Source: Nemertoderma westbladi (lineage: Eukaryota; Animalia; Xenacoelomorpha). Taken from it: a stretch of 64,000 nt of DNA. Shown piece by piece: positions 3,910-59,244 of this stretch. The stretch is from positions 1 through 64,000 of the forward strand of contig JAUCBJ010007475.1 in NCBI GenBank assembly GCA_032718475.1. Reading direction: 5' to 3'. Under the pieces are notes generated by a model, which searched no databases, was not told the origin of the DNA, and saw nothing but the letters and a program-made list of their open reading frames with translations. The position numbers and the translations under genes are program-made. Numbering within the stretch: position 1 is the stretch's first letter; each line of letters begins with the position of its first letter.

Positions 3910-5212
3910 TGTATATTAGGTCCTCTGCTTTTTGTATGCTATGTAAATTATATGATAAGTAGTATAGATCCCGATTTTAAACTCATTTTATATGCCGACG
4001 ACAGTGCTCTTATTTTCTCTCATAAAGATCCTATCCATATTTCCCAAAAGTTAAGTGCAGTTCTAGAATCCTGTAATGAGTGGTTGGTTGATAATAAGCT
4101 ATCCATTCACTACGGTAAAACTGAAAGTATTTTGTTTGGTTCCAAAAGAAAGTTAAAGAAGGTAACTAAGTTTGAAGTCACTAGTAATGGCTGAATGGAC
4201 ATAAGATTGAAAATAAAAAGGAAGTTAAATATTTAGGCGCCACATTAGATAACTGCTTATCAGGAGAAAGTACAGTGAAAAATATTTTCTCGAAAGTTAA
4301 CAGTAGGCTTAGGTTTCTATACAGAAATAAAAATAGTTTAAACACCGACTCCCGCAAGTTACTTTGCTCTTCTTTAATACAGTGTCACATGGACTATGCT
4401 TGCTCTTCTTGGTATGAAGGCTTAACCAAACAGCTTAAATGTAAATTACAAGTAGCTCAGAATAAAGTAGTACGATTTATTAAAGACTACAAACCTAGGC
4501 ACCACCTAACTCCAGATGACTTTTCTGAATCTGGACTACTTAACTTAGATAGTAGAGTTAAGCAGCTACGCCTTAACCATGTGCATAAAGTGTATAATGG
4601 TAAATGTCCCAATTACCTAAAACAAAAATTCAACAGAGTACGCGATACACACTCTTACAGTACCAGAGCTAGTGCTTCAAACTTCTACCTCCCGAATTGT
4701 AAATCCTTTGAATCTGATACTTTCTTTTTTAACGGCATAAAAAATTGGAACGCTCTGCCTAATGAAATTAAAAACCTAAATAATCAACATTCTTTTAAAT
4801 CTGCAGTTAAATCTCACCTCCGTGCAGCCGTGTGCAATGTAAAAATAGGTACTAATAGTCCTACACAGTAAGTTATTAGTTTATTAATTATTTACTATTT
4901 ATACTGTAAATACGTTTTATAATAAATTGTTCTGTACATTACATCTTTATCGTTGAGTCGGGCATTGTCACGCTCTCGGTAAAGTTGTACATGTACATAG
5001 TGTAATTACGTTTTATATTGGTTTTAGGTTAGCGTAGTGTAATATTGTATTTGTAACCAAGTAACATAAAGGACCCCCTTGGAAATAAGCTGCAAAGCTT
5101 TAGGGGTAATCCTATATGTTATGTTGGACAATACCTTTATACCGGTACATTGTTTGGTGTATTTGTTATTGTTTTTACATAATGTATAAATAAATCTATC
5201 TATCTATCTATA
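3910..5212 (+). mobile_element. 5'-truncated CR1/L2-group LINE (RT C-terminus, 3' UTR, microsatellite tail)
   Basis: ORFs 3952-4194 (LYADDSAL, WLVDNKLS, KTE) and 4275-4871 (DYACSSW, LQVAQNK, WNALP); 3' stem-loop near 5070-5112; AATAAA then (TCTA)n. Confidence 0.88.
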
Positions 5213-6033
5213 TAGGTTTTCTGGTACGCCGATTTCAATGGCATGCTTTTTAAATTCCGCAGTTGAATACTGGAATACACCTACCATGTTCGGTGCTAAA
5301 ATGAAAAGTGCAAGAGTAAATAAACATAATTTTTCAAATTTTGCAGATTATATGTAAGCAGCCTCAGCCATACGTTCTACTGTTCTATGTAGTATTGTAA
5401 GCTGATATTTTGGTTATTATGTGTACTACCGGTACCTGATTACAGTATAATTATAATTACATCCCACTGCAGTGCAGCCAGTATGTACGTACACCAATAC
5501 TGGTGAAACGGTACCGGTACAATAAATAACAGCTGCCAGTAATACAGTAATACTGCAGTTGTAAAAAATTCAGTGCCCCTGAAACCGGAAAGAGCCCCCA
5601 CTAGGAGAATACACTAGGGAATTTTAACCGGGGAGTGATTTTGCATGGCAGCAAGGGCAGTGAAAATTCTCTGTTACACCGGTACTCTGTTACTGTTACA
5701 CCAGATTTGGCAATAAACATTGCCATATGTGGCAACCAGGCAACTTTCAGACTTTAGAGGTTGCCAGATTTGGCCATTGAACATCCCACTGCTGCAGTGG
5801 GATGTAATTATAATTATACTGTAATCAGGTAGTACACATAATAACCAAAATATCAGCTTACAATACTACATAGAACAGTAGAACGTATGGCTGCTTACAT
5901 ATAATCTGCAAAATTTGAAAAATTATGTTTATTTACTCTTGCACTTTTCATTTTAGCACCGAACATGGTAGGTGTATTCAACTGCGGAATTTAAAAAGCA
6001 TGCCATTGAAATCGGCGTACCAGAAAACCTATA
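5210..6033. mobile_element. Fold-back/MITE-like element with ~250-bp inverted arms
   Basis: 5210-5472 (tataggttttctggtacgccgatttc...atcccactgcag) is the near-exact reverse complement of 5792-6033. Confidence 0.85.
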
Positions 6034-6267
6034 TGTAATTGCTGTACTGCCATAGGCCTATACTCTGATACTCCAACTCCTACTCCAGCATCCATATGTC
6101 CACTGTCCAGTACCAGAGTACCCACCGGTACGTGACATAGGCAGATAGGCTGTAGGCCTATGCAGCTATGACTGTATGACATAACCCATAACCAACCTAC
6201 CCGTAGCAGCAGTATAGCAGTAGCACAGGCTGACACTAATTAGCTGATGATTTGAATGACATGAGCC

Positions 6268-7117: not shown

Positions 7118-7463
7118 ATCATGGGTTAAAATCAAGGGTCCTTATTGGTTAAAATTGAAATGAAACTCACAAATTAAAATTGAGCGATTCTATCACAAAA
7201 TTGGTATTTAAGAAATTTAACTAAACCGCAGATAAATCAAATAAGAGGGGACAGCTCCTCCCCTTCAACCCCCCCCCCCCCCCCCAACTTAATCTGTATC
7301 CCAAAGGCGCACAGAGGATTGATGTCAGGCAGATACTGTATTAACAGAATAGGCGGTGTTTTAAAAGTAATATAATTTAGGCGTAGAGGCGACCCAATTT
7401 GTAAGAAATATATTAAAACTTGCCTTATGCCGATAGTATGGATGATACTGAAATATAATTTAC

Positions 7464-7979
7464 TGTTAGCTTATTCAATCCCGCTAACACCCCATAAAGT
7501 TATAAGCCGATAAGCAATATTGGGAGCCACGAGATTGGGTAATTAACCAACTCGTGCCATCCCAATAAGAATGGGAAGGAAGCACACAATAGAGGGTCAG
7601 GGGCCAAACCCCTAACCCAGAGAGAACAGGTGGAGTGAACGGGAACACTCCAAAGGGCGCCAACAAGGGTATCAACCAATCAGAGGGGGGAAAGGCATCG
7701 ATTAGGTAGAGTAACAAGGCCAACCGTGCAATATAGCCACTTGGCAGTAATCATACCAATTCAGTTATCTCAGTGCAATACCGGTGCTAGTTTAGGTTAT
7801 TACATAGTTTAGCTAGGGAAGGACCGGGACTTTAGTTACCGTATCCCGCCTTCCATATACAACAATATATCCCATATCTATATCTGTATCTATATCCACT
7901 TATCATATTATATACGACAAACATCAGAACTCATTCACTAAAACCGGATAAACCGGGATCCCTCTTGGATCCCGTCACA
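7464..7979 (+). repeat. 5' LTR of element A
   Basis: tgttagcttattc...gatcccgtcaca; nearly identical to 18462-19004 except for a 28-bp indel. Confidence 0.95.
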
Positions 7980-8055
7980 GTAACTAAACCGAGCTGCCGC
8001 CCTAGTCAAACTGTAAAACTAGCTAAACCACCAGTCACCAATCTGCAGAAGAGAG

Positions 8056-11000
8056 ATGAGTCGGTCAGGTGACACCACACCGACGCGGACCCCGGACGAA
8101 GAGTTAACGATCCGCGAGGCCGCAACCAGGCGATACAGGCCCACAACGCCGGACCCATCGGAAACGGGTCATCCGGCAGTTCAGGACGAGGGGGGCCTGG
8201 AACCCGAGGTCGAACCGAGAGAAAGAGAGGGCGAGACAGAGGGAGACGGAGACGAGTCGACACGAGACGGGGGTCGACGCACCGGTGTCGCCGGCCAGCC
8301 ACAGGCCGAGGGCGACGAGCGGCCCGCCGAAACGGCGACGGTGGGGCCGACGGTGCGGCCCCGGACGCAGAGAGACGAAGGAGATATCGATACCGATGTC
8401 GCCGGCCAGCCACAGGCCGAGGGCGACGGACGGCCCGCCGGAACGGCGACGGCGGGGCCGCCGGTACGACGTCGAACCCGGAGAGACGGACGAGAGGTCG
8501 GCGACGAGGACGTCGGGGTTTCCGATCGACTCCGACGGGCCTACAACGCGACCCAGAGACTACTAAAGGACGCTAAGAAGGAAGGGGCGAAGATAGACGA
8601 GGTGAGACTGAGGAAACGACTAGGTGAGTCGGATAGACACTTTAATTACCTAATGCGTTTTGGGCAGAGAGAACTAGCCGAGGAGAGAGCAAAAGGGGTT
8701 GCCAGCGAACTATTTGAACTATGGGAATGTGGGAGTATGGAACCTAGCGTAGCGTCAGTGTACATAGGGCCATACTTGGTCGATGCCCGGGGAGTAAAAT
8801 TAGTGGGTTGGAACAGACCTGAGGAGGGCGACTCCGAGGCTGACCCCGCGGATTCGGTCTCGTCGGTCGGAGGGAGTTCCGGGAGGAGGGGGAAAGCTAG
8901 TAGATCGGGAAGGCGGAGGGAATCCTCCACAACCGATAAGTCTGCTACATCCTCCGCAAAAGAAAGACGGGTGAGAGAGATAGACGCTAGGTATCGTCTC
9001 AATCTAGCAGTGCAAGGTAATAGAGAAGTAGGTAGACGGCTAGAGGAAGGGAGAGTGCTGCTGGAGAGGGAAATGGCGTCGATTGGAGAGATAAGAGAGA
9101 GGGCCGAAAGGGCCGTGAGGAGCCTTAGGGAGTATGATGAAATAGAGTTGAAGGAACAAGAAGAGCGTGTGGCGAGAGAGAAAAGTGAACGCAGAGAGCG
9201 TGAAGCGAGGGAGGAGAGTGAGCGTAGAGCGCGTGAGGCGAGGCGAAGGGAGGGGATTAGGAGAGAGGTGAGAATTGGCCAAGCAGACCGAACGGGAGGC
9301 TATGGATAAAATAGCAAAAGTGGAGCGTGAGCGAAGAGAATTGGAGAAACAGCGAGACAAACTCGTAGAGTATGAAGCTATACACACGCGTGAGGTGGAA
9401 CTGGCGCAGATGGGGGAGTCTGAGAGCGAGGCTGGCTCGAGTATTTTTGAGGAGCCGGGGGCCGTGGATACATTTATTAATACCCCACTTACAGGGACCG
9501 CACGACAGACCCAAAACTGGTGTGACCGTACGGGCGGGGGGGGGGGGGGGGGGGGGGGGGTAATAATGATAATGGTACAGTAGACGTGGTTAATATTAAT
9601 AGTACCGTATGGGACAATTCTAATCAAACCTTTATTGCAGGAAATACTTTACCTAGTGGTAGTAATTTAAATTTAAATCAGAACATTCCTAATATTAATG
9701 TAGAAAATAATTCTAATATTAATGTAGCTACGCAAAATAATCCAATTAATCAAAGTAATAACCCAAATTCGAACTTACAAAATAATTTAAGTAATGCAAT
9801 AACACAAAATAATCCAAATAACTTAAATAATTCAGCGAGCCCGAATTTACAAAATAATTCAGATAGTGTAGTCGCGCAAGATAATTCAAATGATTTTATT
9901 TCGAACGAACAAATTAATTCCGTTTCCAATACGGGTGCTATTAATGTAAACACGTCGGGCGTGTATGGCCAGACAGACGAGGGCCTGGTAGGCCACGTAG
10001 TTGGTAGGCAGGGAGTGGCTGGGTTAGGTAGACCCAGCGAGGGCCTGGTAGGCCACGTAGTTGGTAGGCAGGGAGTGGCTGGGTTAGGTAGACCCAGCGA
10101 GGGCCTGGTAGGCCACATAGTTGGTAGGCAGGGAGTAGAGGGCCTGGTAGGCCACGCAATAGCAGAGGGAGAGGCGGGGGTGAATAGACCCGACCGCGGT
10201 AGGGTTGATGTGTCGACTGGAGAGGGATATAGTAGCGGGGTGAGGAGTAGCGAAGTTAGATGTGGCGAGTGGGGGGGGGGGGGGGCTACGAGAACCCCAC
10301 AACAGCGAGTTAGCGGCGAAAGGGGGGGGGCAGAGAGTGTCCCACAGCCGTCAGCGGATAATGCGCGGGCCGAAATAGGTAAACCGCAACAACCGGCGAC
10401 GGAAAGTAATAGGGGGATTGCGAGTATCCCCAGCGGCGTGCGACCGAGCAGAGAGAGACAGGTTGACGTCGTAAGAGGGCGGACGAAGCGTCGAGCCCGA
10501 TCAGAAGAGGGAAGAAGAACAGTGGGGTTTAACCGGGAGGTCGACGAGAGATCTCACGAGCGGGAATACTCCACTGAAAGGAGAAGAAGAGAAGACAGTA
10601 GTAGAGGTATCGCCGCGAACGATAGAAGAGCGAGGACGGATAGCGAGCCGTCGGTAGTTGAGATGAGAACGGAGAGTCAGTGGGGTCGGACTCCGGGAGA
10701 TTGCCGTCGCCCCGGAGAGATGCGACCCGGCGAGGCGCACTACGCGCCGAGAGAGGGGTACGCGATGTACCGGTACGAAGATGAGAACAGTAGAGAGGGG
10801 GGTCGAAGAGAAACTTTCCGACGGAATACACCTATCGATCGAGAATACGGTAGCCGCGGGGAGGATTATTCGAGAAGAATAAACTTCGATCCCGAACAAC
10901 ACATGCAGACTGTAGGACATACTGTAGGCCTTACTGCACATACCATAGGCCATACTGAGAGAGGCAATGTAGGCGATAGGATAGCGTGGACAACGGGATT

Positions 11001-13923
11001 AAACCCGGAAGTCGCGGAATACATACCGGCGGGTAGGCCAGAAGCTGATAGGCCTATACCGGTACCAGCACAGCAGTATGACTACAGCATGCAGGGACAT
11101 AACATATACCCAGGGGAGGGGGGAATTATTGCGGATAGGTGTATGGGCCCCAACATATTAACATCAACCCCAGTACCAAACATACCGGTGGGGGGGGGAC
11201 AGGGTGACATTCCCCCATCACAATATCAACAATATACCCCGATAGGAGCAAGAACAACGAGACCCTTGGATGAGAATAGGTCGTGTGACACAGACATATG
11301 GAGGGGGCCGCTACCCCCGATGACATACCCAAGTCAGAGAAAGTCAAGAAATAGGACAGACGGAACGCACCAGACAGGAGAAACTATGCAGCACCCATCG
11401 AATCCATTGGAAGCGCAGGCGATGGGGATGGCCACGTTGATCGATGCGTTGAAAACGAGGATCGAGTTACCACCCGTGGAACCATTCAAATTCGATGGGA
11501 GCAGGCCGGAAGAATATCTACAGTTTCGGCGCATGTATAGTAACGAAATACTAACAAAAAACTTGACGCAGGCGGAGTGCCTAAAGTATCTACAAGTGTA
11601 CACGGGAGGCCCAGCATACGACATCGTGAGGCAATATCAAGGAATAGAGGGCGGCTTCACGACAGCATGGCGGGCACTGGATAGGGAATACGGGCACCCG
11701 GCCAAGATCATCAGGCAGACGCTGAGAGGCATAACATCGGGTGGCCTACAGGATAATCCCGTTAGCATTAAGACGTTCGCTAACAAAGTCGAAAAGGCGC
11801 TAATCGTGCTGAAGACGCTAGACGCGCCGTACGAGCTCAATGCGTCCAACAACATCACCACGATAGCGCAGGCACTACCAAACTGGCTGCGCAACAAGTG
11901 GAGGAAAATCGCCTTCTCCACTCGAGATAAGAAGGGTGCGGAACCGGGTTTAGAAGAAATGTCAAACTTCTTAAACTACGAGGCTGAACTAATAACTGAC
12001 CCAGTCTATAGCGAAGACAGCCTGGGAAAGGGACCGAAGACAGACTACCATAGACCGAAACCAGAGCACAACACATCGAACGCATTACCGAGACTCAGGC
12101 AATCATTGCCATATGCAGCGACGCAGGGGACTGCAAGTCCACAGCTAGCCGAGGATAAGACAACATCATGGAACGGACAGGGAAACAATAACAACACGAA
12201 TAAACATAACCCCAGTACGTCCAATAGGCAAAACCCAAACAATAAGAATAGTAGGGACTTTGGTACGAACGCAACTGCGATACGCAATGCACTGTATAAA
12301 GAGGGCTACGACCCAAAGAGCAAATGTCAGCTACACGCAAATGCGCTTCATCAAACTATGAACTGCAGGTACTGGCAGGCGCTACCTAGGCAAGATCAGA
12401 TAGATTATGCGTTCAGCAATAAAATCTGCTCGCGATGTGTAATGAGTGGACATAGAGCAAGGGAGTGCAAGGAGAAGCCAATGAAATTTGGTCAAAGGAG
12501 AGGCCAAACGATGGCGACGAGCACAGTAGGGGCGAAGAAGAGAGGAACGGTGCTACTTGGAGTAGTACCAGTACGAGTGATCGGGGAAGGCAATCGATCA
12601 GTAACAACACTAATGCTGGTTGATAGTGGAGCTGCCTTCACATTAGTCGAGGAATGGGTGGCCGAGGAGATAGGATTGAGAACGAGGCCAAGCAGGATGG
12701 CGGTAACAACCATCTCTAGCAAAGATGAGATCCTGGAGATGAGAACAGGACGGTGCGCAATTGCAGCAGTGGCACCAGGATGCGACTATGGGGCAACCAT
12801 CGACCCCATTCAAGTGATAGAGTCAATTAATATCAATGCCAGGCGGCCAACCAACATCGAGGTCGAGCAGTATAAATTCCTGGACGACATTGACTTCTCA
12901 ATCCCAGACGTGGACGTTAGGAAGGTATCCATCATAGTAGGTATGGACTGCCCAACGGCCCACGAAAGAATGCAAACGGTCTTCGGCGAAGACAAGCAGA
13001 GTGACCCGGTGGCCATATTAACACCATTCGGGTGGACACTGACAGGCCCAATTAAGAGTAATATACCATTCCATGTGTCCGAGAGTTCAGGATGCATGGT
13101 GCCAGGAACTGACGAGATAGAGGAGAGGCCAGAGATGGGCAATAGTGGTAGACAGCTAGAAGTAGAAGCAACACCAAGAGAGTGGGCGGAGGAGAATGGT
13201 ATGGATGCAGAAGATCTAGAGACGATGGGTTGGAATAAGGGTCCCAGCAAGTATCGGTATGGAGATGGAGAGGAGCGGACGGTGGAGTGTCGGGAGGACA
13301 AACCGGAGAAGTGTCCGGTGGAGTGTCCAGAGGAGCGCCCGGAAGAGACGCCGGTCCGGTTGAGAGGCATACCGACAAGGGGGAAGCCGAGTAAGAATAC
13401 AAGATGGAAAGGGAGAAGATGTGAGACGATCAGACCAGGGGCAGAGAAGCCCATGAATAAACATATGGTGGACAAAGGAGCCGGGAGAGTAGGAGGCGTG
13501 CTGCGTACGCACGCGGAACTGACAGAGTGCGAGGGGGCATTACATGGGCAGACATCGTGTATACCGAAGGACGAACGGGGGTCGTTGAAGCCTTTAATGC
13601 CAGCACACATATTAAGGGGGAGGCCAGCAGAGGTGGCATCTAAGATTAAGGAGAAGAACAGGGGCGGCATTATACCGCCGGGTGACACGTTGAAGGGTGG
13701 CACTTTGCCGCCAAGGGACGACCACGAGATCAGAAACATAAATAACAGACAGCATTTGCAAAAACAGGAGAAAAGACCACCTATCGAATTGACAAGGAGA
13801 GCGGAGCGAAGAATTAGAGAACCTATAGGGGGGCAGTGGGAGAGTTGCCTGCTGGAGGAATCACCCCTTGGGTCGCTGAGTTGTCCAACAGGTTGGACTG
13901 GGATGGAAGAGTTAGATCCGTAA
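8056..13923 (+). pseudogene. Gag-protease polyprotein of element A with integrase C-terminal vestiges; apparent compensating frameshifts near 9280 and at the G-run near 9540-9560
   Basis: PVEPFKFDG (DUF1759-type Gag), CQLH..H...NC and CSRC...GH....C knuckles, LVDSGA protease, TPFGWTLTG, degenerate LKPLMPAHILRGRP and CLLE; ORFs 8056 and 9586 share a frame. Confidence 0.85.
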
Positions 13924-14089
13924 AAGGTGCGGGCAGAGGTGTTACCTGTCTGCTAGAAGGGGCGCCTTAACTTGGAGTTAGAGTAGAGTTTAGTCGTCCA
14001 AGTTTTGGACTGAGGGGGGTGGGATTGAGGGCGAGACGCCCTTCCCACAAACAAGATAATAAAATAAAATAAAAAAAATAGTACATGGT

Positions 14090-14760
14090 AGGTACGCAGT
14101 TAGTAGGCAGAGAGTTAGTAAGAAGGTACGTAGTACCCAGTTAGTTAGTTAGTTAGGAGGTACGTAGTACCGCCAGTTAGAGAGTTAGTTAGAGGGTACG
14201 TAAGTACCGTTAGTTAGTTAGTTAGGAGGTACGTAGTACCGCCAGTTAGAGAGTTAGTTAGAGGGTACGTAAGTACCGTTAGTCAGAGAGTTAGAGGGTA
14301 CGTAGTACCGCCAGTTAGAGAGTTAGTTAGAGGGTACGTAAGTACCGTTAGTCAGTTAGTTAGAGGGTACGTAGTACCGCTAGTCAGAGAGTTAGAGGGT
14401 ACGTAGTACCGATAGTTAGTTAGAGAGTAAGAGGGTACATAGTACCGATAGTTAGTTAGAGGGTACGTAGTACCGATAGTTAGTTAGAGAGTTAGAGGGT
14501 ACGTAGTACCGATAGTTAGTTAGAGAGTTAGAGGGTACGTAAGTACCGCTAGTTAGTTAGAGAGTTAGAGGGTACGTAGTACCGATAGTTAGTTAGAGAG
14601 TTAGAGGGTACGTAAGTACCGCTAGTTAGTTAGAGAGTTAGAGGGTACGTAAGTACCGCTAGTTAGTTAGAGAGTTAGAGGGTACGTAAGTACCGTTAGT
14701 TAGAAGAGTTAGAGTTAGAGGGTACGTAGTACCGTTAGTTAGAAAAGAGAGAGTAAGAGG
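14090..14760 (+). repeat. Tandem array of ~18 units (30-37 bp), each with a GGTAC-GTA(A)-GTACC hairpin
   Basis: gagggtacgtagtaccg(a/c/t)tagttagttagagagtta repeated. Confidence 0.95.
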
Positions 14761-15229
14761 TAAAAGGGGATATAGATATAGGTATTAGTTAGCAGTTAGT
14801 AGAGAGAGGGGGGCATATGAGTACGGCTGGATAAATCGTGTGGCCACACGACGCATACTGCTGTACTGCATAGACCCACAGAGTAGGCCAGAATGTGGAT
14901 TAGAGAATAGAATAATCCATAGGTAGTAGTAAGTAGTAGGACAGTAGAATCAAAGTAAATAGATAAATAAATAGAATAGGGCTGAAAGTTGTAAAATAGT
15001 GGCAACACAAGGGAAGTTATTCTAGAACATAATAAAAGTAACGGACAGAAATTGTAAATTACGCTCATTTACTAGCTTCAAAATTAATTAACAATAATTT
15101 AGGTTAAAAGGCGCAGTTAAGTAGGAAATAGGCCATTATCGAACCGTACAGAACATCTTAGATACATCACTCATCTGTATTGCGCCTTGGTAAGGCACCA
15201 CCTTGCAGGTGAGCGAGTGAACGTTCGGA

Positions 15230-17752
15230 ATGGCGAGTAAGTTGATCAGAAAGAGAAAGGCGGAGTCAGGAGGAAAGGAGATACTGGTGGATTTCACCGA
15301 GAGACATCCGGAAGAGAAGACGAGAGGATACTACGAGAGGTTGGAAAGGGGTCACGCGGCACGAGCGCTGCAGGATCACTTCCGGGAGGCGCACGAACAG
15401 CGGCTGGTCGGGACCTATGGGACGCCGTCGCTGGACAACGCGATCTTCCAACACTTCCACTACGTGGTGAAAGGGGACGAGGCGAAGTTCGGGATTCCCA
15501 AATACCCGAGGGAATCACCGAGGAAGGACTGGAAGAGATTCATAGAGTCCGTCAACAGAGGAGGATATATGATCCTAGATGACGAGGGAACCGTGGAAGA
15601 TGAGGCGGGTTCGAGACGAGGAACGGCGGGGTCGGCCAGGACCATACTCCTACATTTGGCCGCGCCAAATGGGGACATCTTCTTATTCGACCTAGGGACG
15701 TATGGGAAGAAGGACGGGCCGAAACTAAACCGGTTACCAAAAGCGGTACAAGTCTTAGTAAGAGAGAAGTCGACGACGAAAGTGGGATCGGCGATTCGCG
15801 AGGATGCGGAGAGAATCATCGGTCCGGACGCCACCAACCTCCTGGATATGCAGAAAGTCTTTATGGCTATGACGGCACCGGATGGGTTGGGGGTAGTCGA
15901 AAACACAGGCCAATGTGGGGCGGTGGCGATGGGCCAATTATTGGGGCTCGTATGCCACAAACCAATGGATTGGGGGAAGTTTAGGGAAGAATACGGAGCA
16001 GAACTAGCGAACTCGCTAAAGTGGGGAGCGAGACCGGGAAAGCAGGAGGTATATCAGTTCCGCAGGGGAGCGATAAAGGTATATCAGAAGCGATATATCC
16101 TGCAGGAGGACTGGATGATGATAAGTTTGCTCAACTTATTCATGACCATAGTTATCGAGAGGGAACCAGGGGCATTTCTGTTATCGGGATCACCCCTAAG
16201 CTACAGGAGAGCCTTTAAGACGGCCTTTGACGGTCTGGTAGACCACCCGGGGCTGAAGGGCGAGTCGGTGTACTACAACAGCCGACATCTGGTAGACAGG
16301 GAGACAGATACACAATATCAGAGATGGGAGCAGCTAGAGGCGGATAGACGAGAAGCAAAGCGACTGGAAGAAGTCGCTAGACGGGAGAGGATAGAAGCAG
16401 AGGAGAGGGAAGAGGAGGCCAGGACACAGAGTTACGGCTTCGAGGAACAGGCGGGCCTAGACGAACTTCATTGGACTTCGTCAGGGAGTTCGGGGGAGTC
16501 TCTAGGGCGAGAATTGGGATGGACGGTGGGATCGCCGAAACAGTCGACGTCGGGGTTGCAAACGATGCCCATACCAGCGGGCGCCGAGGGCGACCAACCG
16601 CCAAGGAAGTTACGGGAGCTAGAGGGATGGAGAGCTACGGGTGAGAGCCAAGGCGGGAAGGGACATAGTGGATCCATCGGGATACCGGGGTTGGAGACAC
16701 TACCAGAAGAAGAGGACGACGACGACGAGTTCGGAGAGATGCCGCCCATCGAGAGGATAGGCCACTCGGACACGGACTGGGTTGGCGGAAGGGTGGTGAC
16801 GGCCAGTGGGGCGAGGGCCTTCTGGAACAGATCCGGCAAGCGGACCTGGGTGCACGAGGAGCCGGCGATGGATTTTGCGGGGAGCACCATCAGGTTGGGC
16901 GAGCAACCGGGAACGGCACCACGGATAGTATTCGGGGAGACGATGCCCGAGAGGGGCAGAGAGATCGACGTAGACAGGGAGACCAACGTAGAGAAGTTCG
17001 CCTACCAGCGACTCCACAGACCGCGGAGATCGCTTGGGACGAAAGACGAGGTGGGACGGGAGACATTGGTACTCGGCTGCGACTACTGTGGGAGACAGAC
17101 CCATCGGGAAAGCAGCTGCCTATACCGGTTCCAAAAGGGAACCTTTTGTCTCTACTGCAGAGAACAAAGCCACAGGATGGGGGCGTAGTGCCACTTTCGG
17201 GGACACTACGGACGCGAGTGCGACTGGATGAACGACGAGGAGAAGTTCACAAGATTCGAGGAGTGGGCCGACGTCGGGGCCATGACGCGCCAGCGCATGA
17301 AGGCCCAGGAGTTCAAGTGGGGTTTCTTCCTTATCAATCAGGAGACTCACATGGAAATCATAAAGCGGAGGCTACCGTTTACCTACCAAGAGGTGGCAAC
17401 GGCGGCGTCGTACGCTGGAGTGATGAACACGCAAAGGTATCTGGACAGGTGGACGCCAGAGAACCGAAGGGAGTTTAGGGATTTCTTGGCGGAGCACGTA
17501 CCAAGGGCAATGAAAATGATCCTATGGGACGCCACTAGAGGGAGACAGCCGGGCCATTCTGAGGGGCCACCGGCGAAGCGATATCGGGCACTAATAACAC
17601 CAGCGCCCAAGGAGCCAACGACCGGGATCAGCAAGGAAATGGCGGCGAAGGTTCGAAAGCAGAAAGCGGATGATGCCAGAGGAACGGTGATAACCAAGAA
17701 ACGACCCAGGGAAGAGGACGCCAGGGGGAACTACCCCCAGAGGAACAGATAG
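15230..17752 (+). pseudogene. Accessory ORF of element A: DEDDy-like 3'-5' exonuclease + zinc knuckles; one in-frame TAG at 17186-17188
   Basis: ILDDEG, LPKAVQVLV....KVGSAIRED, LLDMQ, YILQED; CDYCG..H....C, CLYC...H, CHFRGH...C; collinear with 47007-49607. Confidence 0.75.
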
Positions 17753-18461
17753 GTTCCCAGAGTCGAGGGAGAGAGACTGGGACTTGGACGTGGTACGCCT
17801 GGAAGGCGCCGCGTGGGATGTACGAACTATTAAGTACAAATTCAATTAATGCAAAATAATCATATAAGTGCAATTTGTATGTACGTACGTAGTAATTAGT
17901 AATCTAGAAATATATACGTTCGGAGTAAGTACTATAGTCATACAACCTTTCTCAATTAGCTACTGGGACTGGGGGATAACTGACTACGGCACTATGGACG
18001 AGACACCAGACAATTTCACACTTCTTGAGTGCGACGGCACGAGAGGGGGGGGAGATTCGTCAGAAGGGAAGAGACAGTCGAAGTGAGGTTGAGGGACGGA
18101 ATAATAGTGCGGAGTGCGGAGAGAGTGCGGACGCAATTCTAGTGTGGGGGGGGGGAGAATAAGAGGCTGAGTGAGGGACGAGGAGGTCCGAGTGTGAGAG
18201 AGTTAGGGTGGGAGTGAAGAGGAGATAGGGCGGAAGTGTTGGGGAAACAAAAGTTGCGTGAGAGGTGAGCGCGATCGGCCCGACATGAGACGCCAGGCAC
18301 ACAGGGTAGCGTTATCATACCCATAAGGGGCGGCCTGGAAAGCCGACTCCGAGAGAAAAGAATTCCACCCCACACCCGATACTAGATCGGGATCCAGCGG
18401 GATTGTAGCGCACTTTAGGGTTGATGCTATCTTCTTACCGGGAAGATAGCATGGGGGGGAG

Positions 18462-19004
18462 TGTTAGCTTATTCAATCCCGCTAACACCCCATAAAGTTA
18501 TAAGCCGATAAGCAATATTGGGAGCCACGAGATTGGGTAATTAACCAACTCGTGCCATCCCAATAAGAATGGGAAGGAAGCACACAATAGAGGGTCAGGG
18601 GCCAAACCCCTAACCCAGAGAGAACAGGTGGAGTGAACGGGAAAACTCCAAAGGGCGCCAACAAGGGTATCAACCAATCAGAGGGGGGAAAGGCATCGAT
18701 TAGGTAGAGTAACAAGGCCAACCGTGCAATATAGCCACTTGGCAGTAATCATACCAATTCAGTTATCTCAGTGCATACCGGTGCTAGTTTAGGTTATTAC
18801 ATAGTTTAGCTAGGGAAGGACCGGGACTTTAGTTACCGTATCCCGCTTTCCATATACAACAATATATCCCATATCTATATCTGTATCTATATCCACTTAT
18901 CATATTATATACGACAAACATCAGAACTCATTCACTCTTTATACACGGCGGGGACGCGTGAACTAAAACCGGATAAACCGGGATCCCTCTTGGATCCCGT
19001 CACA
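18462..19004 (+). repeat. 3' LTR of element A
   Basis: Preceded by PPT gggggggag and followed by TSD tttac. Confidence 0.95.
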
Positions 19005-21994
19005 TTTACCATGCATATAAACGCTTCAACGAAATTATTTAGCTAATTATTCCAAAAGAATCACGATTACAATACGCATCTAATCATTTTGCGAGATAAA
19101 CAATGAGCAAGCTGTCTTATTAGTCTGGCTCTCTTTACACTGCTGCCTGTCCTATAGATGTAATTATTCATTTCTCGAGCAGCGGGAGGTGGGAGTTGGT
19201 TCCCATCCAGCTAAGCAATAGAAGCAGGCCATGGAATGAGGGAGGTGGAAGTATAGTATGGAAAAACGGGGCATTCTAATAACTTAACATTTAGATCAAT
19301 TAAAAATACACCCGTACATTACTTAAAGCAATACTTAACTCCCAAAAGAACCCAAAAAACCCAATAGAACCCAAAAGAACCTAAATTTGTTTTCAACATT
19401 ATATTTTACCTCCAAATCTGCTGCAGATGTCCTCTTGCGCAGATTTTCTGCCACTTGTGCTTGAATTTATTCTTCGAATTAACTAACCTGACTCTTAACC
19501 CGACCTAATAGAATACTGACATTCTACTGTAAGTTACTTGTTAAGTCACGCAGAAAAACTCAAACACACATGCAGGCAGACTATTAACGTATCGGCTTTA
19601 CAAACTTGCAGCGTTGCAGGGCCTCTTCTACGTAAACAGTAGGATTATTCATAAGCCTAGGGGCTGCGGCCTGGAGGTGGCATCTAAATCTGAAATTAAC
19701 CGATGAGTGTATAGTATGCGGAAAATATGATTCCATAAAAAAGGAACTCCGACATTTTTCCATCTAGCTGGAGACTGTTGAAAATAAACTTTTTCTCTTA
19801 TTGATGCCTGCAAATTTTCAATTCGACAGATTTAAATCCGACAAAGTTGGATCCCCGGCCACCCCACTATCAGTGTCAGTTCGCAGAGGATCTGCAATAC
19901 TGCAATACGACAAGAGTGAAAACAAATAACTCAAATTAAACAGTAGGCTACGCCACCTTGTGGTACATAATGTGCACTGGTTTGAAGGCCCTTGACAATG
20001 TAAAGGAGACGTTAAACACAGCACGTTTCTCATTGTGTCCATGTTTCCATTTTCAAATATTCCTGTTAGACGGTTCAACACAACTGCAGTACAGCAATTA
20101 CTGGTGCCAGACTATCTAAATATTGGGTGTAAACGCTACGCCGACAATAAATTTTTATTTTTAAATTTCTTCTAGAGCATATTTTTATCAAGATTCCAAA
20201 TTTGAGAATCGTTTAGCATGATCTGTCTTAATTCTCGAGATATGGCTGTCTATCTGTTTGACTGTCGGTCTGTCCGTCACCGTCAGTATGTATCCAAAAC
20301 AATAGAAAGATACTACTGTATCTATCATAAAAATTTCCTGCATCGGTTTTCTTGGTCGGTGACTTCATTTCTGATGTCAGTATTCAAATTTGGCCTCGTC
20401 GTTTCTGTTTGTATGCTTGTCCTGCCCGTCAAAATAAAACCGACAGCCTGTTTCTACTGTAAGTTATTGATGACTAAATAATAAAATAGGCCTATTAAAT
20501 ATAATGCAAAAATAAACAGATACAGTACGCCAGGGATCGAACACGTCTAATGTCTATGTTGATAAGTAATAGCGAAGTATCCATTCCACTAATCGGAAAG
20601 AATGAAAAAATAGGCACAATGAGGAACGAACTGCGTTTAACGCCTCCTACAATGTAAATGACACAGTTTTGTATGTATTTCGTTGGCGGCAAATTCAAAT
20701 CGAAGCGCCAACTGCCAGCTCTGAGAATCTGATAGAGAACTCTGATTACCCTGCTGCCTGGCCAGGGGCTGAGTTGTAGTTGGACGTGTACCGGTATGTC
20801 GTGTAGACGTACAGACGTACCGTCGGTAGATAAGGCTACTGGCAGACACTGATTACCGTACATCTGTACTGCCATTGACTGCTGTACACGACTGTACAGT
20901 ATCAGAGTACAGCCAACACTTCACAGCTGCACAGTACTGCAGTAGTATCGGTACTACTCTGCTACTGCAGTACTGTCAGACTGCAGACTGTAGTAAGTAA
21001 GGAAAGGGAACACAAGCCAGCTAGTCAACTGGCAGACTGGTCAACTAGTTGCCACACTATTGCCAGACTACACTAAGGCTGTAAGGTACCGGTCTGCCGG
21101 TACCGTACCTACCGGCTACTGCCTGTACTGCCCTTCGTCTGTTCGTCGCCTACCAGGCTGCCAGGCTACCGGCTGACCTATACTCCCTGACTCCAGGACT
21201 CCCAGACTCCTGTCTGCCTGTACCTATCTGCCTGTTGACCTGTGTACTGTACAGTTTCAGTTTCTGGTACAATAATAAAACCTACTCTTATCTTACTGTC
21301 TTAGGGATGTATGGTCACTAGCTAACTAGGGCTGTAGACGTCCGACAGTAGACAGGTAGAGGGTGGCTGGGTGGTCCAAAAAATGTTCACAGGGTACGGG
21401 TACCTATTGCCTGACTGCATGATTTTTTTGGTTATAGAGCTGTAGAGTAACTACTGACTGTTTAACCATGTGACTAATGACTCTGACCATATCTGCATAT
21501 GGTTTCCCTCAATTGGTAAAGTGATCATTTATTGTTCTGGTTAGAAAAGCCTGCCTCTGTAACCTTCTCCTTTTCCTCAATTGGTATATTTATATAGGCC
21601 TATACCAGTACAGTACATCAGCAAATCAACGGGTTTTGGAACTTCAAAATATTGCCAAGTGGGTGTACTGAAACCGATTTTACCCAAAAATTGCTACACA
21701 CTGACACAACCAGTTATTAATACTGTTATTCTGTCCTGCTGTGCGACTATTTGTTTCTCATCTGATATTGATATCATTAGAGTGACTGTAGTTAGTTGTT
21801 GTAGGAGATACTGAGATACATGCTACAGTCTTGCTACCACCTGTACTTCTAAAATGTCCGACTAATAACATGTACATGACAGTGACAATGACTTGAAATT
21901 AGCAGACTCTAATGTCTTATATTGCAGTATTGTATATTTATTCTGTTCTAGTTTTATTTTTGTTTTATTTTTGAATTTATTTTTGTGTCTACTA

Positions 21995-23306
21995 TCTGAC
22001 AGTCTGACTGTTGATGGTGACACAGAACCATTTGAAGTATTATGGGGAGTCCTCCAAGGAGATACACTTGCGCTATTCTTGTTCATAATCATAATTGTGG
22101 TTGACTATGTCAGTATGTTCTACGCATGTCCTTAGATCATCATAATTATGATGGGGTAATGGTAACTCCACCTACTGGCTCTAGAAGTCGAGTAATTCCT
22201 GCCAAGTACCTAACTGATCTAGACTTTGCTGATGACTTAGGAGTACTCCTGTACTCTCAGAATCACTAGAGGAAGCCCAACGGCTCCTCACCTAATTAGA
22301 ACAGGCTGCTTCTAGTGTTGGTCTTTTTATTAACTCCAAAAAGACCAACATTTTGGCAGTTAATTTTGAAAGTGCTCAGCCAGTCAGCAAGTCTCTGACC
22401 GGATGAACATAAGCTCAAAGGATGGTATGCTCGGAGACGGGGGGGGGGGGGGGGTGGGTGGGGGGAAACTTGATGCAAAACCCGCCTTGGCGAATTAATA
22501 TCCCGCATCAATGTTAAATTCACAATTTAGGGAAAGGAGCAGGTTACAGTGGCACGATATTTTAACCAAAACAATAAACTAAACACAATAAAACAGGTAA
22601 CTGTTATATTTTTGAGAGTAATCATCTGTTATTTGCGTCCAATTTCCCCTGGAGAGGGGTGAATTTTTATTGTGTCCAGTATGCTCGAGCATGTGGATGA
22701 CTTCTGTTACCGGGGGTCATGGATCCGGAAGTCAAATGAGGACCTTCGAAATTCGAATACGTAAGGGAAAGGCATGGTCAGCCTTGAATGGGCTTTCTAG
22801 GATTTGGAAATCATATAGAATTAAGGTCCGATTATTTAGAGCAGCAGTAGTTCCCGTACTCCTCTATGGGAGTCCATGCTGGGCTCTAACTGCTGAGGAC
22901 GCCAAATCTCTGGATGGCACATTCACAAGAATGCTACGCCGGGTTCATTGTGTCGGGCAATGCACACATCTCCAACCAGACACTATATAACATTGGAGAT
23001 AGATGTCTCATTGGTTCCCCCAAGCTTGACACTATAACAAAGTTGCCTCCGCTTTGCAGGACATTGCTTTCGCCGTGAGGACCAGCCAGTGCCTAATCAT
23101 GTGCTTTGGCAGCCTCATGGAGTGAATAATAAGCATGGTGGACAACCCATGACTTTCTTGAGACGCATGTTAAAGGACACCAGCATTGAAGATGCGGATG
23201 ATCTAGCAAATGTCATGGGTGATAGGGAGTTGTGGTGGCGCAATTTTGTCGACAAGCCACCTGCAGCTGCAATGCAGCATGCCGATCCTAGTAGTAGTAG
23301 TAGTAG
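21995..23306 (+). mobile_element. Degenerate 5'-truncated RTE-clade LINE with (TAG)n tail
   Basis: GVLQGDTLA.FLF, DLDFADD, RKGKAWSA..LSRIWKS, VLLYGS..W.LT, LDGTFTRMLR; tail tagtagtagtagtag near 23289-23306. Confidence 0.85.
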
Positions 23307-23444
23307 ATCTGATATTGATATCATCAGAGTGACTGTAGTTAGTTGTTGTAGGAGATTCATGCTACAGTCTTGCTACCACCTGTACTTCTAAAATGTCCTG
23401 TTAATAATATGTACTTTGACGATATATTGTATATTATTCTATTA

Positions 23445-23655
23445 TCATTAGAACCACCTATTGCAAGCGCTTTCTTATTGGTTGAATATTCAATATTTTA
23501 ATCGTCCAATCAGAGAGTCAGAAACTTCTCGAGATTAGGATGTTGTAACACAGGAGGCAGAACATCATAATTTCAAGCGTTTCTGATTGGATGACTGAAA
23601 TATTAAATTATTCTACCAATAAGAAGGCGCTTGAATTAGGAGGTTCCAATGACAC
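23445..23655. mobile_element. Small degenerate MITE-like inverted repeat
   Basis: gaaccaccta..caagcgctttcttattgg..tccaatcaga versus tctgattgga..ccaataagaaggcgcttg..taggaggttc. Confidence 0.6.
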
Positions 23656-23833
23656 TAATAAAATGCATTTGTTTTGTTTTGTTTTATGCATTGTCAGATT
23701 GTTATTGTTTTTACATACATACATAATAACAATGACCGAACGTAATCAGGATCGAATGTAAATAGTTATTACGTATCGAACGTAACTGCAATTATGTTAT
23801 ATTGGATCCTATAACTATGTTACATTCGATCTA

Positions 23834-25399
23834 CACGAAGTGGGGCCTTCGCGCAGCACGTGACTTAAATTTAATTTAAGTACTAATTTGAAAGTATTAC
23901 TGTATTAGCAAATTTTAAGCAGATTTCGCCTAATCACTTTTTACCTCTTCCATTTCTATTCAGACATTTCTGACTCTAGCGGTATAGTGAGAACTGAAGA
24001 TGGATTAGGGTCTCCAGCCCCACAAAGACACAGCCTATGGATGAATAGTACACACGTACATCGGCCAAGTTTCATCTTGAATAACGGATAACGAAATGAG
24101 AGACGGATCTCACTTTCAGAAATTTCGTCGTATAGCGGCAGACCGATTAAATCTCCCCCCCCCCCCCCCCCCCCCCCACAAAGACGCAGCATGTGGTCCA
24201 GAATATATGGCAAGATTCAGCTTAAACTGATTAAAATCAATGAGACGGGAGAATCTATTCACTTTCAGGCATAAAGTAGTCCTATAGCGGGTGACTGTTG
24301 AACTGATTTTCAACAAAACAAATTTTCAATTTGGCAGCTTTAAATTCGACAAAGTTATAAGCATGTCAATATCATAACGACGACAACGATTTCACTTTCA
24401 GACATTTGGCCCTCTAGCGGCAGACTGGAGAACTGCAGATGGATTCGCCTCCTTTGAAAGTCACAGCTAATGGTCTAATACATATCTGCCAAGTTTCAGC
24501 TTAAACGGATTAAAAGCAAAGAAATGGGAGGGCATTTAATGTTTAGACATGTGGCCCTCTAGCGGGAGACCATTGCACTGATGGTGTCTGAAAGTCTCTC
24601 AAAAATCTCAACTTTAGCTCATATTGATACCTAGAAATTTTCAACTTGGCAGCTTTAAATCCGACAAAGTTTCAAAAATCTCAACTTTAGCTCATATTGA
24701 TACCTAGAAATTTTCAACTTGGCAGCTTTAAATCCGACAAAGTTATTAGCATGTCAAAATCGTAACGACGACAACGATTTCACTTTCAGACCTTTGGCCC
24801 TCTAGCGGCAGACTGGAGAACTGCAGATGGATTCGCCTCCTTTGAAAGTCACAGCTAATGGTCTAATACATATCTGCCAAGTTTCAGCTTAAACGGATTA
24901 AAAGCAAAGAAATGGGAGGGCATTTAATGTTTAGACATGAGGCCCTCTAGCGGGAGACCATTGCACTGATGGTGTCTGAAAGTCTCTCAAAAATCTCAAC
25001 TTTTGCTCATATTGATACCTACAAATTTTCAACTTGGCAGCTTTAAATCCGACAAAGTTATTAGCATGTCAAAATCGTAACGACGACAACGATTTCACTT
25101 TCAGACCTTTGGCCCTCTAGCGGCAGACTGGAGAACTGCAGATGGATTCGCCTCCTTTGAAAGTCACAGCTAATGGTCTAATACATATCTGCCAAGTTTC
25201 AGCTTAAACGGATTAAAAGCAAAGAAATGGGAGGGCATTTAATGTTTAGACATGTGGCCCTCTAGCGGGAGACCATTGCACTGATGGTGTCTGAAAGTCT
25301 CTCAAAAATCTCAACTTTTGCTCATATTGATACCTACAAATTTTCAACTTGGCAGCTTTAAATCCGACAAAGTTATTAGCATGTCAAAATCGTAACGAC

Positions 25400-26380: not shown

Positions 26381-27357
26381 ATGGATAACCTAATGGATAG
26401 CGATAGTGACAGCATCACAGGAGAGTCTACAGTTAAAAAGAAGGTTATTAAGAAACCGGAAGCTTCTATGCCTTGTACTGCAAATAAACGACTATCTATC
26501 GAGAGAATTTATCATAAGAAGACCCAACTTGAGCATATATTGCTGAGACCTGATACTTATATTGGTTCCGTAGAAACGGTAACTCAGCCAATGTGGATTC
26601 ATGATGGCAGGAAACTGCGTCTTAAAGAAGTTTCTTTTGTCCCCGGTTTGTACAAAATACACTTGAGATTCTTGTAAACGCTGCTGATACTTATTATCAG
26701 CAGCATTTACAAGAATCTCATCAACTATTTTGTACAAACAGGGACAAACCGGGGTTCGAGATTCCAACATGAGTCTTATAAAGGTGGTCATAGAACCTGA
26801 AAACAATTTAATTAGTGTTTGGAACAATGGCAGGGGAATTCCTATACAGATACACAAAACCGAGAAAATGTACGTTCCCACCATGATTTTCGGTCATTTG
26901 CTGACCTCCAGCAACTTTGATGACGACCAGAAGAAGGTAACTGGTGGAAGAAACGGTTATGGAGCTAAATTATGTAACATTTTCTCTAAACGTTTTATCT
27001 TGGAGACGGGAAATAAAGAAGAAGATGGTGCGAAGATATTTAAACAAGAATGGAAAGATAATAAGACTCAAACAAAAGATCCTGTTGTGAAATCCGGAAG
27101 GGATAATTTTACAAGTCTTACCTTCTACCCGGATTTAGAAAAGTTTCATTTATCACGGCTCGAGGATGATTTTGTTGGAATGGTTCGTCGACGTGCCTAC
27201 GATGTTGCTGCTACCACTCAGGGTAAAGTGAACGTTACTTTCAATGGAGAACGAATACCTGTGAAGAACTTTAAGGAGTATGTGGAGCTGTACATTAAAG
27301 CAGTTCATCAGGATGAAGATGGTGAAGAAATTCCTCTTGTTTATGAAAAAATAAATG
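26381..27357 (+). pseudogene. TOP2: Intronless fragment of DNA topoisomerase II (ATPase domain), disrupted by an inverted duplication
   Basis: KRLSIERIYHKKTQLEHILLRPDTYIGSVE, FVPGLYKI, DEILVNAADNK (on the inverted arm), WNNGRGIP, IFGHLLTSSNFDD..KKVTGGRNGYGAKLCNIFS. Confidence 0.93.
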
Positions 27358-27455
27358 ATTTATTTTTTCATAAACAAGAGGAATTTCTTCACCATCTTCA
27401 TCCTGATGAACTGCTTTAATGTACAGCTCCACATACTCCTTAAAGTTCTTCACAG

Positions 27456-28513
27456 CTTCCTCATCCTCCAGTTCAACATCTTCGAGTTCCAACTCGGGAT
27501 CCGGGGGTCGCCATGGGGACCGTCGACGCGCGGACGCCCCCCAGCGTGTCGGAACGAAAGGTCGTCGTCGCCGGCGGTCCCCCCGTGGTGACGAGAGGAA
27601 GCGATCGGAGCGTTCCCCCCGCGCGGAACGCGAGCGGTCTCCGCGTCGCAAACGGAAGTCCCGTTCCCGATCCAAACCCAAGGAGTCGGGGAGACGGGGG
27701 CTCGAGCGGGACGGTGGGGGAAAGCGGGGGGACGGGGGAGGGGCGAAACAGATGGAGGAAAGACATAAGGACAACAGAGAGGCCAGGGAGGCGAGTTTGG
27801 AACGGCATCGAGAGAAAAATAGAAAATACGTTCGATATTTAATGAGAGAAGCGAGATTCTTCGTGATAAAAAGTAACAACCACGAGAAAGTGGCGTTGGC
27901 CAAGGCGAAAGGGGTTTGGTCAACACCACCTATGAACGAAAAGCGTTTGAACTGGGCCTTCAAAGAGTCGCGCAATGTAATTCTAATATTCTCTGTGAAG
28001 GAGAGCGGAAAGTTTCAGGGCGTAGCGAGATTGGCGAAGTTGTCCAACCGAGATGGGCCTATGGTTCAGTGGGTTCTTCCGCAAGGGTTGACGAACGCGG
28101 CTCTAGGCGGCGTCTTTAAGATCGACTGGCTCAACCGGAAGGATCTGCACTTCGAGAAGACTGCGCATCTCTTCAACCCCTGGAACGAGAACAAACCAGT
28201 TAAGATCGGTCGCGACGGACAGGAGGTTGAACCCGGATGCGCCAAGGCGCTGTGTGATCTGTTCCCGCCTGACGATCACATATCCGTCGCGGATATCGTG
28301 CGACGTGTGCGACGCGATCGCGCGATGGAAGGCGATGATATCGATTGTAAGCGTCGTAAAGGCGCGCCCGAGACGCCGCTGGATGGGGGGTCGGTTCGGG
28401 ATCGGCGACCTCCACCGAGACGGGACGACGATAGGTACCACCGAGCCGAGCGCTACCGACCCCCCCCCCCCCCCCCGAGCGATACGGGTTCCTGCCGCCC
28501 CCGCCCCCCATGA
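27456..28513 (+). pseudogene. YTHDC1: Intronless YTH-domain m6A reader (YTHDC1/YT521-B-like), 5'-truncated and fused to the TOP2 palindrome
   Basis: RS-rich segment, then [69 protein letters not shown]. Confidence 0.9.
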
Positions 28514-29398: not shown

Positions 29399-29855
29399 AA
29401 ATATCGGTATGAGAACTCACGTTTAATTTATTAATTGTTACGATAAAAATTAATAGATACCTAGACCAACGGCATACCAAACCAAGCCAAATCTCCACAT
29501 AGTTGTCGCAATTTCGTTCCTCCCTAGTCCCTTTTATCCCTTTCAAGTTGGTCAAGTTCGCCCACGTTAACGCCTAAGTGATCAGAGTACATGTGAAACA
29601 CGAACCACCGTAGGCAACCCGTAGGCAACCCGAAGGCTCCTCTCTCTTGGCTGTTACCTGTTAGGCAGGGAGGGAGGACTCCCAAGATCGAATATTTTCA
29701 CTATCCAACCGTTTTCTTTACTTCCCCGACATCCATGTTACCGGCCAGGTACCCATTATAATAGATTATCTATATATAATAGAATAGCTGGGTGGTCTGA
29801 AGGTAGTTCATTCGAGTTAACAGCTTAACTAAATCGAGGATGTTCCGTATCTGGG

Positions 29856-32800: not shown

Positions 32801-33735
32801 ACTTACCTACTGTACCTGTGCTAACCCAACAACTCTGATGCCACACTTACCTACTGTACCTGTGCTAACCCAACAACTCTGATGCCACACTTACCTACTG
32901 TACCTGTGCTAACCCAACAACTCTGATGCCACACTTACCTACTGTACCTGTGCTAACCCAACAACTTTGATGCCACACTTACCTACTGTACCTGTGCTAA
33001 CCCAACAACTCTAATGCCACACTTATCTACTGTACCTGTGCTAACCCAACAACTCTGATGCCACATTTACCTACTGTACCTGTGCTAACCCAACAACTCT
33101 GATGCCTCACTTACCTACTATACCTGTGCTAACCCAACAACTCTGATGCCACACTTACCTACTGTATCTGTGCTAACCCAACAACTCTGATGCCACACTT
33201 ACCTACTGTACCTGTGCTAACCCAACAACTCTGATGCCACACTTACCTACTGTACCTGTGCCAACCCAACAACTCTGATGCCACACTTATCTACTGTACC
33301 TGTGCTAACCCAACAACTCTGATGCCACACTTACCTACTGTACCTGTGCTAACCCAACAACTCTGATGCCTCACTTACCTACTATACCTGTGCTAACCCA
33401 ACAACTCTGATGCCACACTTACCTACTGTTCCTGTGCTAACTCAACAACTCTGATGCCACACTTACCTACTGTACCTGTGCTAACCCAACAACTCTGATG
33501 CCACACTTACCTACTGTACCTGTGCTAACACAACAACTCTGATGCCACACTTACCTACTGTACCTGTGCTAACCCAACAACTCTGATGCCACACTTACCT
33601 ACTGTACCTGTGCTAACCCAACAACTCTGATGCCACACTTACCTACTGTACCTGTGCTAACCCAACAACTCTGATGCCACACTTACCTAAACTGTACCTG
33701 TGCTAACCCAACAACTCTGATGCCACACTTACCAC
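29856..33735 (+). repeat. Modular satellite: 20-bp core CTGATGCCACACTTACCTAC in 25-, 35- and 44-bp units
   Basis: Core + (t/c)tgtt, core + cttgctacctcaact, and core + tgtacctgtgctaacccaacaact. Confidence 0.97.
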
Positions 33736-38683: not shown

Positions 38684-39080
38684 AAATTAAGAATAATTAC
38701 GTTCAACTTCAACTGGTGGAAGTTGAGAATCCTTCAATACTCTTCAAAAACTCTCTACGTGCTTGCCAGCACCCACTACGAGGAAACTCGGGTATTTGAG
38801 TTGAGACGAAGTCGTGGTTTAATTAATCAACAAACTCGATCTAACCAACTCGTAGTCGGCAGATCACATATTTGGAGAGTTGTTAACAGGGAATGGAAGT
38901 ATCGATCACACCCATTGATATAATTCAAGTTGAGCCAGGAATCTGGCACGTCGAAGTTGAAGTACAAGGAACGAACGTCGGACGATTCAGGATTACCGTT
39001 CGGGTGGTCCAAGCTGAGTACAATACCTACGAGGAACTGTTTTATGACATCGCGTATCTAGCTATCGACGAGGCGTTACA

Positions 39081-59171: not shown

Positions 59172-59244
59172 TACTCTTATCTTACTGTCTTAGGGATGTA
59201 TGGTCACTAGCTAACTAGGGCTGTAGGCGTCCGACAGTAGAGGG

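Follow-up and report, generated by a model that had tools for sequence, protein, structure and literature searches.

A predicted self-primer in the long terminal repeat of a non-autonomous BEL/Pao retrotransposon from Nemertoderma westbladi

Members of the Belpaoviridae (BEL/Pao) are primed by tRNA according to the ICTV, and an 18-nt primer-binding site (PBS) for tRNA-Arg or tRNA-Gly has been described for them (PMC8742986). Self-priming, on the other hand, is reported for the Tf1/sushi group of Ty3/gypsy chromoviruses, namely Tf1, Tf2, and Tj1 (PMC4600332; 10.1101/2022.12.06.519325). It has also been predicted for two plant lineages, Tcn1 of gypsy and TAR of copia, because the bases just past the LTR have a complement there, under a rule of at least 10 nt (PMC6317226). 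Self-priming in BEL/Pao was not found in the literature searched, which consisted of listings and the starts of abstracts. A term search of the text available for PMC3118150 and PMC554778 likewise returned no mention of PBS, primer binding, or self-priming.

The stretch analyzed here (the window) is 64,000 nt of contig JAUCBJ010007475.1 from the xenacoelomorph Nemertoderma westbladi (GCA_032718475.1). It holds two elements that resemble the Belpaoviridae: element A (7464-19004, + strand), through a DUF1759 gag and a protease, and element B (37613-50846), through Peptidase_A17, integrase, and DUF5641. Unlike the family profile, neither carries a PBS for tRNA-Arg or tRNA-Gly; ten of their relatives have TGG-type sites. 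Element A is similar to the Tf1/sushi elements in that it has no tRNA site, its PBS lies right past the LTR and complements its own LTR RNA, and extra helices flank this pairing. Although it would work like Tf1, it falls outside the Tf1/sushi group: its superfamily is BEL/Pao rather than Ty3/gypsy, the stretch complementary to its PBS is predicted ~70 nt into the transcript and not at the 5' end, and it has neither its own reverse transcriptase (RT) nor RNase H. In many relatives of element A, moreover, the complement of the PBS (anti-PBS) runs across a predicted splice junction, which is a further difference from Tf1. The flanking helices of element A draw on LTR sequence that lies upstream of the primer end. 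In the "pretzel" of Tf1, two further helices use downstream LTR sequence instead; these were not found in the fold of element A, where only 2 weak pairs (7841-7842:7977-7978) were present. With Tcn1 and TAR, element A shares a complement to the first bases past the LTR, a trait that arose more than once (PMC6317226). Those are plant elements of other superfamilies, however, and the core of element A, at 9 nt, is one short of the 10-nt rule given there.

The LTRs of element A, both TGT...ACA on the + strand (5' LTR, 7464-7979; 3' LTR, 18462-19004), differ at 2 substituted positions and by two indels of 1 and 28 nt, the longer being a stretch of the 3' LTR that is absent from the 5' LTR near 7936. 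A target-site duplication, TTTAC, stands on the left (7459-7463) and on the right (19005-19009), and a polypurine tract (18453-18461) precedes the 3' LTR. Since the LTRs are near-identical and TTTAC is present on both sides, the insertion is recent. The gag-protease region (8023-13923, + strand) consists of two open frames, of which the first (8023-9309) has no Pfam match and the second (9526-13923) contains DUF1759 (PF03564, E 1e-10) and an aspartyl protease (PF13650, E 3.5e-5). The first ATG of the leader is at 8056-8058. Neither RT, RNase H, nor integrase was detected with 8 Pol queries in six frames, and nothing matched past the protease, so the element is read as a non-autonomous derivative. 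Several hallmarks of BEL/Pao are present (TG...CA LTRs, a 5-nt target-site duplication, a polypurine tract, DUF1759 Gag, and aspartyl protease), and, as judged from its sequence, element A is a young, non-autonomous BEL/Pao (Belpaoviridae) retrotransposon. Folding predicts an 8-bp hairpin at the U5 end (7954-7974), while a motif scan of the LTR found no AATAAA or ATTAAA. A tandem array of ~36-nt units occupies 14140-14740, where pol would be.

The PBS of element A, GTAACTAAA (7980-7988, + strand), begins with GT and adjoins the LTR end at offset 0, and the tRNA 3'-end trinucleotide TGG is absent from the first bases past 7979. Its reverse complement, the anti-PBS TTTAGTTAC (7831-7839, + strand), is the predicted 3' end of the self-primer; it ends in AC, is followed by C, and lies 140 nt before the LTR end. 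A first-pass annotation of the window had placed both strings at these positions, had noted the lack of TGG, and had pointed out an initiator-like TTAGT within the LTR complement, which the motif scan located at 7832; in all of this it was correct. An Rfam search over 7440-8120 gave no tRNA match and two sub-threshold matches only. Of 20,000 dinucleotide-shuffled LTRs, 35 gave a 9-nt match at offset 0, rising to 108 when offsets 0-3 are allowed and to 149 for offsets 0-5, and 21 of 10,300 internal positions of the element have a 9-nt complement in the LTR. When splice junctions were permitted, the score of 9 was equalled at 5 of 300 random internal positions. The 9-mer duplex is A+T-rich, with a stability of -7.3 kcal/mol. 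The match is thus unlikely to be due to chance, but its weight is modest when taken alone, in agreement with the earlier caution that nine bases are limited evidence.

For the transcript of element A, the motif scan identified a TATA-like AATATAG (7730) with an initiator-like TCAGT (7761-7765) 31 nt past it, and the usual spacing between TATA box and transcription start gives a predicted start at ~7763. In RNA beginning there, the minimum-energy fold brings 7765-7839 together with 7980-8059 in one interrupted duplex, with the 9-bp helix between anti-PBS and PBS innermost (P 0.90). The 5' arm (7765-7830) pairs in this model with the leader (7989-8059), which includes the first ATG, through helices such as 7765-7771:8053-8059, 7790-7795:8023-8028, and 7804-7818:8000-8014, the best of the outer arm with 14 of its 15 positions paired. 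The 9-bp helix was obtained in 35 of 35 combinations of start (7735-7783) and end (8040-8300), at P 0.72-0.92. With starts at 7800, 7807, or 7817, the primer helix is absent and a G+C-rich hairpin (7817-7854) forms instead, which holds the anti-PBS within its 14-nt loop; the probability of the 9-bp helix is 0-0.04 for 5' ends at 7807 or 7817, and 0-0.69 at 7790, depending on the 3' end. From 7831, it falls from 0.94 to 0.63 and 0.015 as the RNA is extended in the 3' direction. The annotation had expected transcription to begin near 7831, and this was not upheld, because AATATAG/TCAGT is the better promoter, the duplex extends from 7765, and the helix is fragile from 7831. On this modeling, a start at TCAGT (~7763) is more likely than one at 7831. 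A start at TCAGTT had even been put forward as a ground for rejecting the pairing; on the contrary, it is this start that gives the pairing its best support.

The outer arm is stable in its own right, as it reaches -45.3 kcal/mol without the 9-mer against a shuffle mean of -27.5 (sd 4.1), a value equalled by none of 2,000 shuffles, with the bounds of the duplex partly taken from the fold after viewing. Among 113 sliding LTR windows, the best partner for the leader starts at 7764. An argument from strand asymmetry was rejected, given that the duplex folds equally well on the opposite strand (-53.7 vs. -52.1). The outer duplex was likewise rejected as a general feature of the clade: 1 of 14 elements reached 0/300, and the long outer duplex was not found in element B. 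A second complement, 7807-7816:8019-8028, had been suggested in addition to the primer helix, and it does exist as 10 bp. It never occurred together with the 9-bp helix (0 of 18 folds) and has a probability of 0.025 in the fold from ~7763. As a partner of the primer helix it was rejected, since the competing fold to which it belongs puts 7831-7839 into the loop of the 7817-7854 hairpin; the priming-compatible helix is 7804-7818:8000-8014.

Element B, whose 5' LTR ends at 38683, has a 13-nt anti-PBS (38476-38488) and PBS (38686-38698) on the + strand. Its match was equalled in 4 of 20,000 shuffles (offsets 0-5) and at none of 10,900 internal positions. The annotation had described elements A and B as sharing one geometry; they are similar but not identical, because the PBS of element B lies at offset 2 rather than 0 and starts with AT rather than GT. 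The Peptidase_A17, integrase, and DUF5641 matches of element B are accompanied by several in-frame stops in pol, despite LTRs that are 98% alike. The database proteins nearest to element B share 30-40% identity with it, those named being from fish, echinoderms, a coral, a ribbon worm, and a pseudoscorpion. The LTR of element B contains three copies of a ~95-nt repeat (38038-38317), and a copia-type RT fragment (RVT_2, E 7e-22; 50753-51778, - strand) overlaps the end of its 3' LTR.

Relatives were sought in metagenomes, where the best 80 of 537 confirmed stretches yielded 78 loci: 16 with a self-complementary PBS, 10 with a TGG-type PBS, 9 that are GT-like but short or not scorable, and 43 without a call, mostly on short contigs. 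The 16 self-complementary matches are 9-16 nt long with different letters in each family, so that the earlier claim of pairing kept while letters change applies to 16 relatives besides elements A and B. Eleven of them run across a predicted GT-AG splice junction and five are contiguous; the junction type has a 10-16-nt complement, GTAAG donors, and pyrimidine-rich acceptors. The LTR end is fixed by a second LTR copy for 4 of the 16 (L029, L042, L057, and L061) and is the best-scoring of 2-30 candidates in the others, which inflates the scores of single cases. In a formal test of 15 loci (L062, a near-copy of L061, was omitted), the score against the own LTR was equalled by 0-1 of 300 random internal positions in 14 loci and by 9 of 300 in L027. 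When the PBS was compared with the LTRs of other loci, 30 of 600 cross pairs reached 9 nt and 3 reached 11 nt; L061 and L067, a close pair, account for two of these three. When eight TGG loci were compared with their own LTR, which was partial in two of them, the scores were 3-7. The PBS starts with GT in 15 of the 16 self-complementary loci, as it does in element A. Among 13 tabulated relatives, the anti-PBS ends in AC in 12 and precedes a C in 9; it lies 74-222 nt before the LTR end, a range that includes the distance in element A. A poly(A) hexamer (AATAAA or ATTAAA) is found past the anti-PBS in 11 of the 13, whereas element A has none, and the 9-nt core of element A compares with 10-16 nt in most relatives. 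In L001, L006, L031, L032, L037, L057, L060, L061/L062, L067, and L073, the PBS perfectly complements a predicted exon-exon junction in the LTR. The two LTRs of L029 are 88% alike: in the 5' LTR (L029:1-340), the last 5 nt of the anti-PBS are preceded by a T-rich, acceptor-like stretch, and the 3' LTR (L029:6694-7103) has the full 11-nt anti-PBS contiguously, which is possibly a spliced form fixed in DNA and could also be an assembly chimera.

In a 76-row RNase H-integrase tree (quick search, midpoint root), all 10 TGG rows fall to the same side of a branch with SH-aLRT 98, a clustering matched in none of 500 shuffles. Element B is opposite the TGG side, on a long branch, and the junction and contiguous types are intermingled. 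A gag-protease tree of 36 rows groups element A weakly (80-82) with element B, L003, L022, and the junction-type L006, a placement that is weak and long-branched. The gag-protease of element A scores no more than 70 bits against any TGG locus and up to 156 bits against other loci. Relatives with TGG-type sites, which the annotation had named as evidence against the idea, do occur (10 of 78 loci), but all on the one side of that branch, and 16 of 78 are self-complementary. No relatives were found in viral contigs scanned with the RT of element B and with alignment A1, and an exact U5 motif scan of the metagenomes found no copy of the element A family itself.

Many copies of this family are present in public runs of one organism label, where they were compared as unphased contigs, whose depth is a poor measure. 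With this limit, copy depth peaks at 7817-7845 and 7962-7990, the former at 57,202 against 16,194 and 18,906 in its flanks (X1). Three of five joints leave the window sequence at 7988, and 5 of 32 listed pieces end there. The 40 variant rows listed, of 178, contain no substitution in either 9-mer; an insertion inside the 9-mer, past 7985, is seen in a minority of copies, and indels crowd 7781-7803 and 7991. Twelve variable sites are listed in the arms (unphased), 7 being unpaired in the model, 2 kept as G-U, and 3 pair-breaking, and for two of the unpaired sites, 8007 and 8029, a letter that could pair occurs in other copies. This pattern fits a conserved core with a variable outer arm, covariation not being proven. 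In a second comparison, 7800-7902 was masked as repeat, making it uninformative on the anti-PBS.

Self-priming in some form is highly probable for element A, because it has no tRNA-type site and a complement to its own LTR, and its relatives keep the match with different letters. That priming is independent of tRNA and carried out by the long 5' RNA arm is the reading favored here, as probable but with appreciable doubt. Transcription would start at TCAGT (~7763), and the first ~77 nt of the RNA would fold back on the leader (7980-8059), the helix 7831-7839:7980-7988 lying innermost and the long outer duplex compensating for the 9-nt core. In Tf1, RNase H has a role in freeing the self-primer. 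By analogy, the RNA of element A may be cut after C7839, most likely in trans by RNase H from the reverse transcriptase of a helper element. Extension of the freed 3' end would then run from the LTR end to 7840, and the resulting DNA would jump to the matching stretch at the RNA 3' end (the sequence past 7839), these steps likewise depending on helper enzymes.

Priming by the long arm has to be weighed against a strict Tf1-type arrangement, in which the RNA starts at or near 7831 and its first 9 nt are the primer. The primer is the RNA 5' end in Tf1 and Tj1 (PMC4600332; 10.1101/2022.12.06.519325), an initiator-like TTAGT lies at 7832, and RNA from 7831 to 8050 contains the 9-bp helix in its minimum-energy fold. 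However, the motif scan has no TATA match ~30 nt upstream of 7831, the probability of 0.015 is reached once the RNA extends to 8150, and 65 nt of outer complement are left unexplained; in the 11 relatives where the anti-PBS spans a predicted junction, it cannot be the first bases of the RNA. Such a start is therefore considered unlikely. Splicing as in those relatives could also build the primer of element A, in that removal of a 40-nt intron (7796-7835) would give a 10-nt match at the best junction, with 7835 ending a YAG and indels among copies clustering at 7791-7803. This is rated a slim prospect, slimmer than the start near 7831: its donor, GTTATT, is a weak one, the sequence before the acceptor has a pyrimidine fraction of 0.32 compared with 0.53-0.84 in 8 tabulated intron relatives, and their introns measure 77-423 nt. 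The candidate intron also contains the best outer-arm helix, and its removal would gain a single base for a match that is already contiguous.

The pairing of LTR and leader may alternatively be real but serve packaging, dimerisation, or translation control, while an undetected host RNA (a tRNA fragment, for instance) acts as the primer. Half-tRNA primers are known in copia lineages (PMC6317226), and the two exclusive folds of element A would suit a control function, one hiding the anti-PBS and the other covering the first ATG. On the other hand, the letters of the PBS vary by family and track each family's own LTR, which is not compatible with a fixed host primer, and the pairing ends exactly at the first base past the LTR, where a primer must end. 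A non-priming role thus appears rather improbable, to be placed between the two foregoing alternatives. Least credible of all, and very doubtful, is that the 9-nt match is a coincidence or else a side effect of some old inverted duplication within a defective family. The A+T-rich 9-mer with its low duplex stability, the 5 of 300 random positions that match equally, and the lack of strand asymmetry would allow it, but the match stands at offset 0, has the GT/AC signature common to the relatives, and has no TGG alternative, and likeness between copies persists to 7988. Element A was, in addition, recently inserted and hence needed some primer.

If a whole branch of BEL/Pao self-primes, this would be another independent origin of the trait, with different mechanics (an internal primer, often made via splicing). 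It would account for the failure of tRNA-based PBS finders to detect such elements, and these would be released from control by host tRNA fragments. Element A adds a case that is contiguous and non-autonomous and whose predicted primer duplex is unusually long. A broader scenario, offered as speculative and more doubtful than probable, is that a large animal BEL/Pao branch has abandoned priming by tRNA in favor of a long, capped 5' fragment of the element's RNA, with AC at its 3' end. This end would in many families be assembled when the host splices out an LTR intron; in the family of element A, a 77-nt arm would zip onto the leader and alternate with the primer-hiding hairpin as a switch between translation and reverse transcription, and the RNase D-like product of ORF3 could trim the primer end.

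ORF3 of element A (15230-17752, + strand), which has one in-frame stop, combines an N-terminal RNase D/EXD2-like (DEDDy-type) exonuclease fold with C-terminal Cys/His knuckles. The structure model of the N-terminal domain (pLDDT 63.5) has an RNase D/EXD2/WRN-like fold, and the Foldseek matches listed for it are mostly nucleases of this kind (best E 2e-4). No match to ORF3 was found in a word-indexed protein search or among PDB sequences, and a HMMER search recovered 5 relatives. Element B has its ORF3 at 46983-49607, also with Cys/His knuckles. By this evidence, ORF3 does not appear envelope-like, and a role in primer trimming is speculation. The bdelloid LTR elements Juno and Vesta have a DEDDy-exonuclease ORF3 (PMC5408684) and are similar to element A in having an extra ORF past pol with an RNase D-like fold; here, in contrast, ORF3 sits in BEL/Pao elements and is joined to Cys/His knuckles. 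The first-pass annotation had linked the self-complementary site to families that carry ORF3. This link does not hold, as relatives without room for ORF3 (~260 nt or less from pol to the 3' LTR, e.g., L057 and L061) have the same site, and the site is therefore not tied to ORF3.

Elsewhere in the window, intron-free frames with HATPase_c-like and YTH domains (26688-28513) stand beside a perfect 98-nt inverted repeat (27259-27455), and either gene capture or a fold-back in the assembly could account for them. Also present, at 19958-23835 vs. 52666-63806, 29850-33840, and 5210-6034, are large interrupted duplications, satellite arrays (units of 25, 35, and 44 nt), and a MITE-like element whose inverted ends are long.
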